The notes under the pieces were generated by a model, which made no database searches, was not told where the DNA came from, and was given only the letters and a program-made list of their open reading frames with translations. From positions 35,712,001 to 35,776,000 of the forward strand of contig OX597829.1 of NCBI GenBank assembly GCA_951406725.2: DNA of 64,000 bases. The letters are read 5' to 3'. The first letter of the stretch is position 1, and each line of letters opens with the position of its first letter. This document shows positions 1,595-63,729 of this stretch, piece by piece. Source of the DNA: Octopus vulgaris. Lineage: Eukaryota. Made by a program: the position numbers and the translations under genes.

Positions 1595-1629
1595 TTTTCG
1601 GACGAAGAGCCATGCTCGAAACGTTATAT
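1595..1629 (+). ncRNA. Degenerate minimal hammerhead ribozyme motif
   Basis: CGGACGA-A-GAGC-cau-GCUC-GAAAC-GUU; U4 substituted and stem I weak. Confidence 0.5.
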
Positions 1630-1980
1630 TCTGCCTTTTCCTTTTATACTCTATACTTAGCGTCAACTTAATACATCCCATGTGTACATATACATGAGCG
1701 AGAGGAGTGAAAGAAATTGAGGGAACAAATTTCAGCATCCCACTCTAGCGTCTTCCCATTACAAACATGATTATGTATATATCTGTGTGTTTTCATCTCT
1801 CCATATCTTAAATGTTATGTATGCATTCACATACATGTATACATACATATACATATATACATATATATATATATATACATATACACATATACATACAAAC
1901 ATATATGTGTGTAACTCGTGAATACCACCGGCGATTTTTTTTCCTCTGTCCTCCCGTCTCGGGATCTTTCCTTCTCCCAT

Positions 1981-2015
1981 GTTTCCGACGAAGAGCTCCG
2001 CTCGAAACGTCAAAC
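1981..2015 (+). ncRNA. Minimal type-I hammerhead ribozyme motif (PLE type)
   Basis: GUUU-CCGACGA-A-GAGC-ucc-GCUC-GAAAC-GUC-AAAC: stem I GUUU/AAAC, stem II GAGC/GCUC, palindromic ACGU stem III; core U4>C. Confidence 0.75.
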
Positions 2016-2111
2016 CTTCCTTCTTCCCTTCTTTCCTGAGCGTCCAATAATACTTTATTTGTTCCACATCCTTGCGTTGTTGTCTTTTTGTTTTCTTGTT
2101 TGGATTAACTT

Positions 2112-2635
2112 TATATATATATATATATATATATATATATATATATATATATATATTTATTTATATGCACACACATGCATATATATATATATACATACAT
2201 ATACACACACATACACACACTTATGTTTGCATCGTCGAATTTATGCGCATAAATAGACGCACGTAGCCATCCTACCATCCATCCATACATACATACATCC
2301 AGCCAGCCAACCAGCCAGCCAGCCATCTATCTATCTATCTATCTATCTATCTATCTATCTATCTATCTATCTATCTATCTATCTATCTGTCTGTCTGTCT
2401 GTCTGTCTGTCTGTCTGTCTGTCTTTCTATCTGTCTGGCTGGCGGGCTGTCTGTCTACTTACACGCGCACACACATGATGCATTTCTCTGTGTCTGTGTA
2501 TGTATGTATGTATGTATATATATATGTGTGTGTGTGTGTGTGTGTGTGTGTGTGTGTGTGTGTGTGAGTACGTGTGTGTTTGTGTGTGTGTGTGTGAGTA
2601 CGTGTGTGTTTGTGTGTGTGTGTGTGTGTGTGTGA
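2112..2635. repeat. Compound microsatellite block (TA)n,(CCAG)n,(ATCT)n,(GTCT)n,(GT)n
   Basis: Directly visible. Confidence 0.9.
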
Positions 2636-3144
2636 GCGAGAAAAGGCACGTGTGGTGACAGTCGAGCACGTTTAATATTACACAGTTAACATTAAAAGCA
2701 TGGAAATTTATAAGACAGATGTGGCTAAAGTATTACACTCCGATATCTCATAAATCACTGCTTCAAATGATATACAATAGCATACTTCTCTGCCGTTTTT
2801 TCGCTCACTCTTTTTCATACGCTTTTTCTGTCTGTCTGTCTGTCTCACTGTCTGACTGACTCTGTCTCTTTGTCTATCACTGTCTGCTCGTCTGGCTACC
2901 TTTCTGTTTGCTGTTTGTATACATTTTGTCATTTTCTCTGAATTCCACTCTTCCTCACCCTCTTTCTGTTTGTATTCCCCCTCCACACATATTCAATTTA
3001 TTCAGCCTCTCGTTTTGTCCAGCTACTTGGACTGTTTACGAATATTTTCTCATACTTAGTTCTCAGCTAAAAATGATTTGCACATTAAATACTTTAATTA
3101 ATTTGCACCATAATATTTATATTGTTGTTATTGTTGTTATTACT

Positions 3145-3600
3145 GAGTGAGAGAGTAGCGCGTGCCATTAGACTGACAATGGGGTACAAATATACCCATC
3201 ATGGATGTATCTATCATGAATACCTTCTTATAAGGGTACATGAGGCACATACATGACAATATGTACGTGAGTTGACGCTCACGTATCAAGGTAAACAGCA
3301 CATGGCCTTGCAGGTGGAGCCCAGCTAAAATTTTATTCAGTTTGAGTAGCCCATCCCGCTCAAAAGGTCCTTGAAATAGGGTTATTTAAGGAACGAAACA
3401 CTCATGTTTCCAGAGGTGAATTATTCAAACCCATAGAATTTCTCTTAACATATGGCTATGATGCTCCCCCACTATTTCTGCTCGTGATCAGAGATGCATA
3501 TATCGTCAGCCACTAAGGGACATGCTCGACTGGTTAAGGTCAAACAACTGACAAGCAAATCTGTCTCATTGAGCAGAATATTTGCTGTAGCCTATCTTAT
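3145..3600 (-). repeat. Unclassified interspersed repeat with AAT/AAC-like tail
   Basis: Higher-complexity block abutting a degenerate (ATT/GTT)n tract at 3118-3143; no convincing ORF. Confidence 0.3.
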
Positions 3601-60490: not shown

Positions 60491-60929
60491 CTATTTATCT
60501 ATCTATCATGATTATTATGAACTTCTGCTAACGCATGCGTAATGATATATAGTAACCTGGCGCCGGCCGGAGTGAAGTATTTATGACTGAACTATAGTTT
60601 ATGTGCATGCACGAACACAAGTAACCTACCATTTAAATTTGTACTTGTTCGAATATTTCTACAACTTCTATTATTTATGTTTCATTGTCTTTTTTCCAGT
60701 TAATATTCTTCATTTATTCATCCTTGTTTTTAATATTAAATGCACATTCTGTCAACAAGTGCTTTGCAATAATTCATCTTACAGCTGTTTGCTTTAAATT
60801 TTACATTTTCATCTGTTGCTTTCCCGGTGTTCTACTTAGAATTAATATTTCATTGCTTGACATATCTACACATTTGTGCTTCCCCGAATGTCTTTTCCTC
60901 CAGCTTCAAGAAAAATGGATACATTTGGT

Positions 60930-61425
60930 GGGTTGAGAGAGGAATTTCGGAAAATTCATGCGAGGCACTTTTGTTTTCTCATAACTTTCTGAAAAATGGA
61001 CATGCCTTTTAGAGTGTGTAGTACGTTTTAGAGTGTGAAAATTACGATTATATCAGAATTTAATATGAGAAAAAATCGTGTACTTGTTCACATACATCAC
61101 ATATATGTTCATATACATCACATATATCTGCAAAATAAAACCTCAAATTTCGTGCCCACCATTTTTCTTTCCATTTCATATTCGGATATAATCCCAATTC
61201 GTACATTCTGAAAGAGATTTGTCGAAAATTTCATTTAAAAATACCAATTTTCCCAAAATTATGAGAAAACAAAGCCGACTTGTGTGAATTTCCCGAAACT
61301 CCTCTCCTCACACCCCGGAAAAACATTTTCACAATAAATTCTGCTATAATCGGAATCTACATTATCTGAAGTGCATTTAGAGAAAATGTTATGAAAAATA
61401 TATTCATATTTTTGGAACTTTGATT
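60930..61425. repeat. Unclassified AT-rich element with internal inverted repeats
   Basis: gaggaatttcggaaaattca...ttgttttctcataa (60940-60985) vs ttatgagaaaacaaa...tgaatttcccgaaactcctc (61259-61305). Confidence 0.45.
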
Positions 61426-61609
61426 ATATATATATGAACACACAATACATTTCTTTCGTTCGTTTTGCATCAAAAAGGTGACAATAATGAGATGGGCTTA
61501 AATTTTCATAAACGTAGATAAGTTAGCGGTATGTACAGTACTTTGATATTGTGTTTTGTAACGAATACTAACTGCATTAAAAGTATACCAAAGTGTGTGT
61601 GTGTGTATG

Positions 61610-62467
61610 TACAGGGTGTGGTGAATAAACTGTCGTCTAAATTACGCAAAAATGAAATTAACACTGACGTCTTATTTTAACAGATATATTTACCAAAAAT
61701 ATAAATATCTTGAAATATTAATGAGTAAATTTATTCAATAAATGGCCTCCAGACGACATCGGAATCTCCTGCAGCTCTTCTGGACGGATGGTCTCCTTTA
61801 AGTTGGTGAATGTTGCTATAATACTTGCCTTCAGTACATATCAGATGTTACATGGAGATTTGTTGGTCTTTCGCTCAACTGCGCCTCACACATAATAATT
61901 AAGGGGTTTGCAGTCTGGGAAGTTAGGTGGTTAGATGTTAGGGATGTTGTGATCGCAGAAAATGTCTGACAGCTATGACTAGGTTCTCCTGCTTGTTTGG
62001 AATGGAGCAGAGTCCTGTTGCCAGACATAGGGTCTTCCAGTAGCCATTCTCTTGACCCAGGGCAGCACTACTTCCACTAGCCACTTGATCTAGGCTTCCG
62101 TGTTGAGTGTGAGAATGTGTGGGAAGATGAATGGTGGCATAAAGTTGATATCACAAGTGATCACTCCAAACACCATGATGTTGACTGGATGTTTGATTTT
62201 TATCACTCTTGGTACATGTCCTCAGATTGACACCTAAATACTTTGAAATATTTGTATTGGAACTTCCCTCGCGAATGCCAAACAGTATAGTATGTCGTTT
62301 CCAAATTTCTGGCAGAGTAGATTGCATCATGGTGCTGTTCTTCTCACAGATGGTGCCCAACTGACCCTACTATATATACTGTATATTCTATAAAATAAGA
62401 TAAAAATAATGCGCATGCGCGAAATTAAAGATATAAAGTGGCGACAATTTACCCATCACGCCGTGTA
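61610..62467 (-). mobile_element. maT (DD37D) internally deleted element, second copy
   Basis: Colinear with 14112-14873; TA-flanked TIRs. Confidence 0.85.
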
Positions 62468-63637
62468 TACACACATAAACACACATGCAACACACACGCA
62501 CACATACTCACACACAGACACAGGCACACACAAACATACGCGCACACATACATAGTTGGCCAAATGTCAAATTCCAAGATTTATTCATAACTTAATGAAT
62601 ATGGAACATCATGAAAATAGTTCAAACTAAAGTCCTTCTTGAACAAAACATTTCTCAATTCGAGTCAATACAGAATTACAGACAGTATTTAATTTTGATT
62701 TACTGTCGAGTGACTTTTGGCCAATCCTGTACACACGCACACACACACACACACACACACACACACACACACACACACAAACACATACACACATATGAGT
62801 ATATATATATATATATATATATGTACATTATTATCAATTTAATTTACTAATTGCCTATAAATTTTTATAGCATGCTGACTACTTGATAGAAATCATCAAC
62901 GTGATTTTTATCCTTATATTCTCTCTCTTTCTGTCTGTATCTCTCTTCTCTCCCTTACTCTTTCGCTATATATATATATATATATATATATATATATGTG
63001 TGTGTGTGTGTGTGTGTGTGTGTGTGTGTGTGTGTGTGTGTGTGTGTGTGTGTGTGTGTGTGTGTGGAACATATGGCGTAAACAGGGTGAATTTTAGCTA
63101 TTTCTCCGCAGACTGAAAAATATGACGAACAACCTTAATCGAACTCATTGAGTTCTTCTCAGAGACGTCTACATCATTCTGGCAGTCTTCAGAGAAAGAA
63201 GCCACCAAACTGTCTATATACTCAACAAGGAAACAATGAAGGAATTAATACCGTATATAGACCAACTATATAGTGCTCAGAATATGAGCTATATAAATAA
63301 TACAGGCATCGCTAGAAGACACAAAAGCCAGGTAATCGATAAGCAATTTTCCTTTATAACATCGGATTATTTAAGGCAAATCTCATAAAACCGTAAAAAA
63401 TATATATGCGTATACAGAATTACATAAAAATACATAAAAATACCCATATGAACATATAAAAAATGTACGTGAACATATAACAAAAATATAAAATGGTGTG
63501 CGAGTGCCTAAACTCGATACATCCGTGTTAGAAACAAGGAGGAAGAAAGTTATAGATATACGAACAATATGTTACAATATACGTAATTAATTAAAAGATA
63601 TTAAAGGTATTCCATGGCAGAGATAAATTCTAATACT

Positions 63638-63729
63638 CATCCTACGATCGTTTAGAGAAAAATGTTACTGGGGGTGGATAAAGTATTCCTGTTCATCTCC
63701 CATATAAACAGTTCCTTCATCAGGGAACA
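63638..63729 (-). ncRNA. Hammerhead motif with long loop II
   Basis: UUCC-CUGAUGA-AGGA...UCUC-UAAAC-GAUC-GUA-GGAU; palindrome ACGAUCGU; G12>U. Confidence 0.5.

Follow-up and report, generated by a model that had tools for sequence, protein, structure and literature searches.

Our analyses show that a 64-kb stretch of the Octopus vulgaris genome (contig OX597829.1, positions 35,712,001 to 35,776,000 of a 2.8 Gb assembly; hereafter the window) contains hammerhead ribozyme motifs that are real and above chance, and that in six of the repeat families to which these belong the non-standard core letter is the majority state of the copies and not the decay of single copies. On balance, we favour an interpretation in which these are minimal type-I hammerhead folds of ten families, likely all mobilised by Penelope-like elements (PLEs), six of them with a variant core as family state and a predicted slow, dimer-dependent cleavage. 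The system itself was already known, since PLE minimal hammerheads with palindromic stem III, the coexistence of many families per genome and PLE-derived retrozymes have all been published. The new point is the variant core common to most copies in six families, which implies elements that have spread with ribozymes predicted to be slow or inactive.

Hammerhead motifs exceed chance expectation

The window has 36% GC and is rich in microsatellites, in keeping with the cephalopod label given by a previous sequence-only reading. That reading had placed in it 11 hammerhead cores with pairing stems and three half motifs; all 14 positions do carry these motifs, but only 3-4 of the 11 cores pass a descriptor as such, the remainder being decayed and backed via their families. 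As that reading also held, every window copy has at least one core substitution, and none has a perfect core. Our strict type-I descriptor (at most one core mismatch, stems I and II of at least 4 bp each, palindromic stem III) retrieved three matches in the window (1985+, 44765+ and 48272-) against a mean of 0.04 and a maximum of 1 in 50 local dinucleotide shuffles. In a genome sample of 80 systematically spaced 10 kb stretches (800 kb in total) it retrieved 19 motifs against a mean of 0.9 (10 shuffles). A second descriptor gave three matches in the window versus 0.4 in shuffles (maximum 2). The comparison with shuffled sequence, proposed together with the sequence-only reading, came out in its favour with the strict descriptor but not when two mismatches were allowed (10 matches in the window versus 5.85, no excess), so that family evidence is required for the weaker sites. 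An Rfam scan of the window had no hammerhead among the 150 of 408 matches listed, which are dominated by microsatellite microRNA matches.

The near-universal palindromic stem III was confirmed, as it occurred in 12/14 matches of the 800 kb sample when not imposed, versus 2.7 expected. The proposal that these palindromes are convergent found no support. Inheritance with compensatory change is simpler, and convergence is unnecessary because palindromic stem III is a described feature of the minimal hammerheads in the pseudo-long terminal repeats (pLTRs) of metazoan PLEs (Cervera and de la Pena 2014, PMC4209133). Chance matches in AT-rich repetitive DNA might be invoked from the two-mismatch count, which lies inside the shuffle range, and from the site at 13825, which has no family, but the strict counts in window and sample, together with the paired stems and palindromes at family level, leave this explanation a negligible probability and already refute it for 13 of the 14 sites.

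Ten dispersed repeat families

These 13 sites fall into ten dispersed repeat families (A-J), which we built from ten genome searches with window stretches as queries; the top loci of these searches are biased toward the window copy, whereas the 800 kb sample is free of query bias. First-look candidate numbers, which are not copy numbers, go from 10 (E) to 2749 (B). The features in the window are the following:

1599..1625, plus strand: hammerhead of family J (site 1595), an old family (72-81% identity); U4 in 17/19 copies, U4G in the window copy by decay; stem I unpaired at family level
1908..2111, plus strand: short 3'-end insertion of family A (site 1981) ending in a (TA)n run; hammerhead 1981-2015, family state U4C, stem III ACGU
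11912..11992, minus strand: hammerhead of family H (site 11911) with long stem II and weak stem I; stem III ACAUAUGU; position 8 mixed (A 9, G 5, C 1; n=15)
13830..13839, minus strand: GAAA + ACCGGU half motif (site 13825), without family, probably chance or an unrecognisable relic
13899..14075, plus strand: mini element of family I (site 14002) with short inverted arm; unit ~333-352 bp; hammerhead 14000-14044; family core canonical, A9G in the window copy by decay
19687..19876, plus strand: old copy of family D (site 19717), 73-78% identity, 5' half of the hammerhead missing
29060..29270, plus strand: 3' end of family G (site 29118); hammerhead 29118-29176, family state U4C (17/19), stem III ACUCCGAGU
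35581..35975, minus strand: mini element of family F (site 35791) with inverted arm; unit 356 bp; hammerhead 35792-35834
43364..43790, minus strand: mini element of family C (site 43538), a little over one unit (~354 bp); decayed hammerhead at 43540-43586
43790..44083, plus strand: inverted copy of family C (site 43890); hammerhead 43894-43937 with U4C
44190..44379, minus strand: inverted, 5'-truncated copy of family D (site 44332); half motif 44332-44346
44400..45060, plus strand: family D (site 44761), ~1.4 head-to-tail units of ~460 bp; hammerhead 44761-44829, family state C3U (25/28), stem III ACCAUGGU
48149..48335, minus strand: 3'-end insertion of family B (site 48241) ending in (TA)n; hammerhead 48241-48276, clade state A6U (58/60), N7 free, stem III ACGU
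59684..60490, minus strand: truncated PLE reverse transcriptase (RT) relic with in-frame stops and no hammerhead-bearing end attached
63640..63727, minus strand: hammerhead of family E (site 63638), low copy (10 candidates), with long stem II insertion; stem III ACGAUCGU; G12U in the window copy by decay

The sites had been described as separate, with mostly unrelated flanks. This stands in that there are many families, ten in the window and more in the genome loci, as had been anticipated, but the 14 sites reduce to ten families (13825 aside), and families A, B and J are related, having stem II, stem III and the 3' flank in common. Families C, F and I have a short downstream block in common (judged by eye). 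Family F comprises two subfamilies, one C3U with stem III ACUAUAGU, the other with canonical core and stem III ACUGCAGU. The lone site 13825 had no relatives in the genome search or in 1.8 Mb of collected loci. We rejected CCAAUUGG at 19717 as a separate palindrome; it belongs to a diverged family D copy (77% identity) with a 2-nt insertion. The window also carries, at 29377-29689, a near-perfect fold-back related to family F (~81% identity) with the hammerhead part missing.

Variant cores as family states

Counted column by column over non-self copies, U4C occurs in 39/55 copies of family A, 17/19 of G and 13/23 of C, C3U in 25/28 of D and 10/17 of F, and A6U in 58/60 of B, where N7 is free; family H has A8 in 9/15 copies. 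Family A has C4 in 30/30 top loci (window copy included) and in 6/9 A-type motifs of the 800 kb sample, and U6 characterises 10/10 B-type motifs of that sample. A canonical core at family level was found in I, J, E (4/7) and one F subfamily, the window copies of I, J and E being merely decayed. The canonical CUGANGA / GAAA / UH core is thus not the family state of A, B, C, D, G and part of F and H, contrary to the canonical consensus with copy-level decay that the sequence-only reading implied. A consensus lacking CUGANGA had even been put forward as a reason to dismiss the hammerheads; these families show precisely that, yet their motifs are real.

The 19 motifs of the 800 kb sample comprise six A6U, five U4C, five canonical and three singletons, that is, 11 A6U or U4C versus five canonical, which implies that descriptor-based censuses undercount. 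No variants at G12, A13 or A14 were found in this sample although the descriptor allowed them. Certain canonical A- and C-type copies may represent CpG decay from the U4C state; the excess of T4 (15) over A5 (2) in family A indicates that a canonical subfamily is present as well. An alternative register for the family B core (UUGAAGA) was ruled out by inspection, as it fails for the N7 = A, C and G subgroups and breaks stem II.

Conservation of the fold

The three helices (stems I, II and III) pair at family level in A, B, C, D, F, G and I, as well as in the intact U4C PLE described below, and the stems of these families are Watson-Crick with differing sequences. Stem I is lacking in J and weak in H. 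Stem covariation, a further check proposed with the sequence-only reading, is seen as compensatory changes in stem I of A and B (G-C versus C-G) and in stem III of F (UAUA versus UGCA). Stem III segments have computed energies of -1.7 to -16.9 kcal/mol as duplexes versus 0 to -1.2 as hairpins and are, hence, too weak as monomers. Circular folds of the D and F units beat shuffles (z = -3.2 to -4.9).

Among four subgroups of family B, the commonest letter differs at 0/31 core, stem and loop columns plus the extra base; it does differ at N7 and H17 and at 11/52 flank columns. Identity between these subgroups is 0.89-0.92 in the hammerhead versus 0.71-0.88 in the flank, while the young subgroup is even (0.95/0.95), a comparison that points to selection on the A6U fold in master copies but that, coming from BLAST-gathered copies, carries some ascertainment bias, which tells against us.

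Two architectural classes

In families A, B, G, H and J the 3' end is fixed, lies ~100 bases or more beyond the predicted cut site and passes into (TA)n or similar repeats, and the 5' end varies; some copies form inverted pairs, and direct repeats are essentially lacking. Direct second copies were found in 0/30 loci of A, 1/30 of B (1220 bp apart), 0/20 of G, 0/15 of H, 0/20 of J and 0/11 of E, so the head-to-tail short units typical of non-LTR retrozymes are lacking in these six families. They (E probably) likely correspond to 3' pLTR ends of longer elements shortened during reverse transcription (class 1). By contrast, ORF-less units (without open reading frame) wrap head-to-tail in C (~354 bp), D (~460), F (356) and I (333-352), with a direct second copy in 11/25 loci of D, 2/20 of F and 1/15 of I plus locus L298. 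In family C the wrap-around unit was seen, and a second direct-orientation hammerhead in 0/25 loci. These four families are likely ORF-less, retrozyme-like units of 330-470 bp copied for more than one round (class 2).

Family D insertions span 0.66-2.5 units, with 3' ends at two AT-rich patches and an inverted second copy in 9/25 loci; all 24 listed run across the predicted cut site. The retrozyme-type tandem repeats that had been suggested therefore hold as units of 330-470 bp but not as long tandem arrays, the longest tandem in the loci examined reaching ~2.5 units. Two consecutive units each with a complete canonical hammerhead, the 'active' arrangement of Li et al., were absent from the tandem loci inspected, where cores are C3U or decayed. 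The hallmarks of PLE products are all present: fixed 3' ends, 5' truncation, partial tandem and inverted copies, and microsatellite targets. Four presumed-RNA runs hold D-like pieces, one contig going back 473 bases; genomic tandem read-through fits equally well and we did not count them as evidence for circles.

Penelope-like machinery

The sequence-only reading attributed the mobilisation of these families to PLE machinery with relics in the window. There, the RT relic at 59684-60490 (68% amino acid identity to an intact element) was confirmed but tblastn found no GIY-YIG endonuclease (EN) relic. Among the 150 of 183 window ORF fragments covered with Pfam there was no GIY-YIG either; RVT_1 matched at 46790 and 59834 and HTH_48 at 37709, along with a weak zf-nanos match. 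A GIY-YIG-like PLE fragment adjoins the right end of the window (L059:7359-7653). At the genome scale the link is supported by intact RT+GIY-YIG elements and by upstream same-strand relics in single loci of B, G, H, D and I, as well as by inversions, truncated 5' ends and flanks of TA repeats.

The genome contains at least two intact two-ORF PLE families with RVT_1, a CX4CxxC linker and GIY-YIG in 775-amino-acid ORFs. One is very young, forming 4271-bp tandems with 40/40 scored pLTR matches ~100% identical. Its unit contains a single hammerhead, located in the pLTR downstream of the RT+GIY-YIG ORF; in 20/20 loci this hammerhead is U4C, has U-U as the basal pair of stem II and has a palindromic stem III. 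In both families (L052:1415-5322, L054:1627-5222) we observed an upstream ORF (557 and 454 amino acids stop to stop) without Pfam match. Its ~90-base overlap with the RT ORF, which is in a different frame, suggests that frameshifting is programmed.

Near family loci, where opposite-strand protein matches were left out of the link counts, same-strand relics were found upstream of family B (GIY-YIG, ~900 bp; L090, 1/30 loci), G (RT+GIY-YIG, ending ~600 bp away; L198, 1/20), H (EN-like; L286, 1-2/15), and D and I (RT-like, one locus each, L129 and L309). For E, C and F no upstream PLE ORF was found in the loci examined. Elsewhere, three canonical hammerheads, in which stem II is long and stem III palindromic, flank a PLE-like relic at L064:5900-8300, which, going by its motifs, we take to be Hydra-like. 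Additional hammerhead families, whose palindromes differ and whose cores are mostly canonical, with long insertions in stem II, occur in L003, L076, L107, L123, L149, L159, L239, L241, L244 and L258.

A possible mechanism and its alternatives

In the mechanism that we propose, a tandem transcript would bring two hammerheads together, whose palindromes would pair with each other to form stem III. Slow cleavage would release a monomer, to be circularised by a host ligase; the PLE GIY-YIG would nick (TA)n DNA, and the RT would prime at an AU-rich patch of the RNA and copy 0.7-2.5 units. We infer the tandem transcription, dimer folding, cleavage, ligation and target-primed copying of more than one unit from PMC4209133 and PMC7229834. 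Selection on master copies would retain the fold together with G5, A9, G12-A14 and A15.1-U16.1, and weakening changes at positions 3, 4 and 6 would be tolerated, plausibly because fast cleavage destroys the template before it is copied. Attenuated cleavage is preferred over a non-catalytic role because the variants sit where natural slow variants exist (U4C, A6C) and leave G12 untouched, as they do G8 outside part of H. In nature, U4C is found in a viroid, with reduced yet sufficient activity, and A6C, which is slow, in a phage (PMC3088659).

Several observations weigh against this interpretation. All single changes in the CUGA turn had low activity in a deep mutagenesis scan (PMC9901934), and the activity of PLE hammerheads is already low (PMC4209133), implying that some variants may be dead. 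Eight of nine Xenopus retrozyme dimers showed no cleavage in vitro. In the second intact PLE family (L052 type), whose ORF copies are 99.8-100% identical, the 3' untranslated region/pLTR (L052:5748-6438) yields no hammerhead even when two mismatches are allowed, and family J combines a canonical core with the lack of stem I, so that cis cleavage may be dispensable; wrap-around units can also be obtained from uncleaved tandem RNA. In addition, the putative class-1 links to PLE ORFs come from single loci for B and G and from one or two for H. For A and J, no upstream PLE ORF was found in the loci examined, and the family A body, followed for more than 2.3 kb in six loci, is CA-rich and devoid of PLE ORFs. 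Finally, family I units fold no better than shuffles (z -0.9).

Alternatively, although we consider it rather unlikely, the variant hammerheads may no longer cut, their fold being a non-catalytic signal (for RNA dimerisation via the palindrome, or as a handle for PLE RT/EN) and the insertions deriving from uncleaved read-through tandem RNA. The A6U clade, which retains its fold while flanks diverge, would fit this idea, as would the low activity of CUGA-turn mutants, the full canonicity of only I and perhaps E among the ten families, the reading across the predicted cut site by all D insertions and the proliferation of Naiad PLEs without canonical hammerheads (PMC8557442). However, at family level G12 (10/10 families), G8 (9/10), G5, A9, A13 and A14 are retained, G does not occur at H17, and N7 is free, all as catalysis predicts, and U4C keeps its function in a viroid. 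A bolder version, doubtful in our opinion, is that catalysis was repeatedly given up in the most successful Penelope-driven families, through U4C in four cases, C3U in two, A6U in one and complete loss in one, with selection keeping fold and palindrome as a dimerisation or RT-recognition element and tens of thousands of tuned-down or silent copies being missed by CUGANGA searches.

The remaining alternatives concern the origin of the copies. Neutral hitch-hiking of hammerheads vestigial in the PLE lineage, each family inheriting the state of its founder, could account for the lack of stem I in J, the L052-type family without hammerhead and the mixture of G8 and A8 in H, but it is very unlikely, given that A, C, G and the intact PLE, four families whose flanks are unrelated, all have U4C although it creates a mutable CpG, that GAAA is unchanged at family level and that the fold is better kept than the flanks among B subgroups. 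Equally, the 330-470 bp units might lack an RNA cycle of their own and consist of pLTR pieces from autonomous PLEs, multiplied through template jumping of the RT or subsequent DNA duplication. Short arrays (<= ~2.5 units), mostly monomers, PLE-type inversions and the same-strand RT-like relics upstream in the D locus L129 and the I locus L309 point that way; yet junction and unit length recur across independent loci (452-486 bp in D, 356 in F) in units without coding sequence, and in L129 the sequence between relic and D copy is unrelated to the D unit, which makes this origin quite improbable. Attenuated, dimer-dependent cleavage in PLE-mobilised families remains the explanation that we favour.

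Relation to known systems

The octopus hammerheads resemble the PLE minimal hammerheads of PMC4209133 in being type I, with an extra base after A9 and palindromic 15.2-16.2 and loop 3, and in forming many heterogeneous families per genome, mostly solo copies of truncated PLEs, with opposite-strand pairs 100-700 bp apart. They differ in that the main text of that work has one core variant (U3-A8 covariation), whereas uncompensated U4C, C3U and A6U are family states here and outnumber the canonical core in the sample. Short palindromic stem III is also shared with the PLE-associated small hammerhead variants that cleave as dimers (Lunse, Weinberg and Breaker 2017, via PMC6765202).

A second parallel is provided by metazoan non-LTR retrozymes (Cervera and de la Pena 2020, PMC7229834; Li, Clavereau and Pollet 2026, bioRxiv 10.64898/2026.07.22.740005), which are ORF-less, AT-rich 150-450 bp units (350-390 bp in mussels) in head-to-tail arrangement with one type-I hammerhead, co-occur with PLEs and have been proposed to derive from them. 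Unlike these, the octopus elements, known here from sequence alone, are dispersed, range from monomers to 2.5-mers and show inversions of the PLE type within TA repeats, without long arrays in the loci examined and with non-canonical cores in C, D and part of F. The intact elements recall Neptune/Nematis-type EN+ PLEs (Craig et al. 2021, PMC8557442) by their RT followed by GIY-YIG, the CX4CxxC linker in both intact ORFs and the upstream ORF in another frame, as well as by partial tandems, inverted 5'-truncated copies and (TA)n targets, the clade being called by motif alone. The difference lies in the hammerhead, which is U4C and U-U-paired at the stem II base in one intact family and undetectable in another. 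Perreault et al. 2011 (PMC3088659) describe U4C (viroid), A6C (phage) and U10.1-U11.1 as rare natural instances whose activity is reduced, whereas variants dominate high-copy families here, and A6U and uncompensated C3U are not named in the available text of that source.

Our literature search, which left out Lunse et al. 2017 and the supplements of cited papers, found neither a cephalopod report of such hammerheads nor any description of U4C, C3U or A6U as the fixed state of high-copy families. An octopus repeat annotation (PMC13282606) lists active Penelope families, and the words ribozyme, hammerhead and retrozyme have 0 occurrences in its main text. The role of hammerheads in PLEs has been described as unclear (PMC8557442). 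The octopus genome offers a natural allelic series in demonstrably amplified elements, from canonical through U4C, C3U and A6U to no hammerhead at all. This series, in which two of the families are autonomous, intact and near-identical, makes the bearing of cleavage rate on retrotransposition directly testable. By extrapolation from 19 matches, and hence with wide error, the 2.8 Gb might contain very roughly 60,000 intact-looking motifs.

Other repeats in the window

A very common two-block SINE-like repeat (resembling short interspersed nuclear elements) with an internal microsatellite is present in ~11 window copies, up to 97% identical:

7523-7933
17661-17990
22908-23299
28646-29033
30159-30450
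31946-32335
35182-35302
37026-37582
42877-43321
55172-55524
57285-57443

Elements with long terminal inverted repeats, likely mariner derivatives, lie at 37606-38577 (with a weak Mos1-type helix-turn-helix match) and 30844-31666. RT relics of the LINE type (long interspersed nuclear elements) occupy 4120-6560, 58450-59100 and 46600-47630, the last with an RVT_1 match at 46790-47029.

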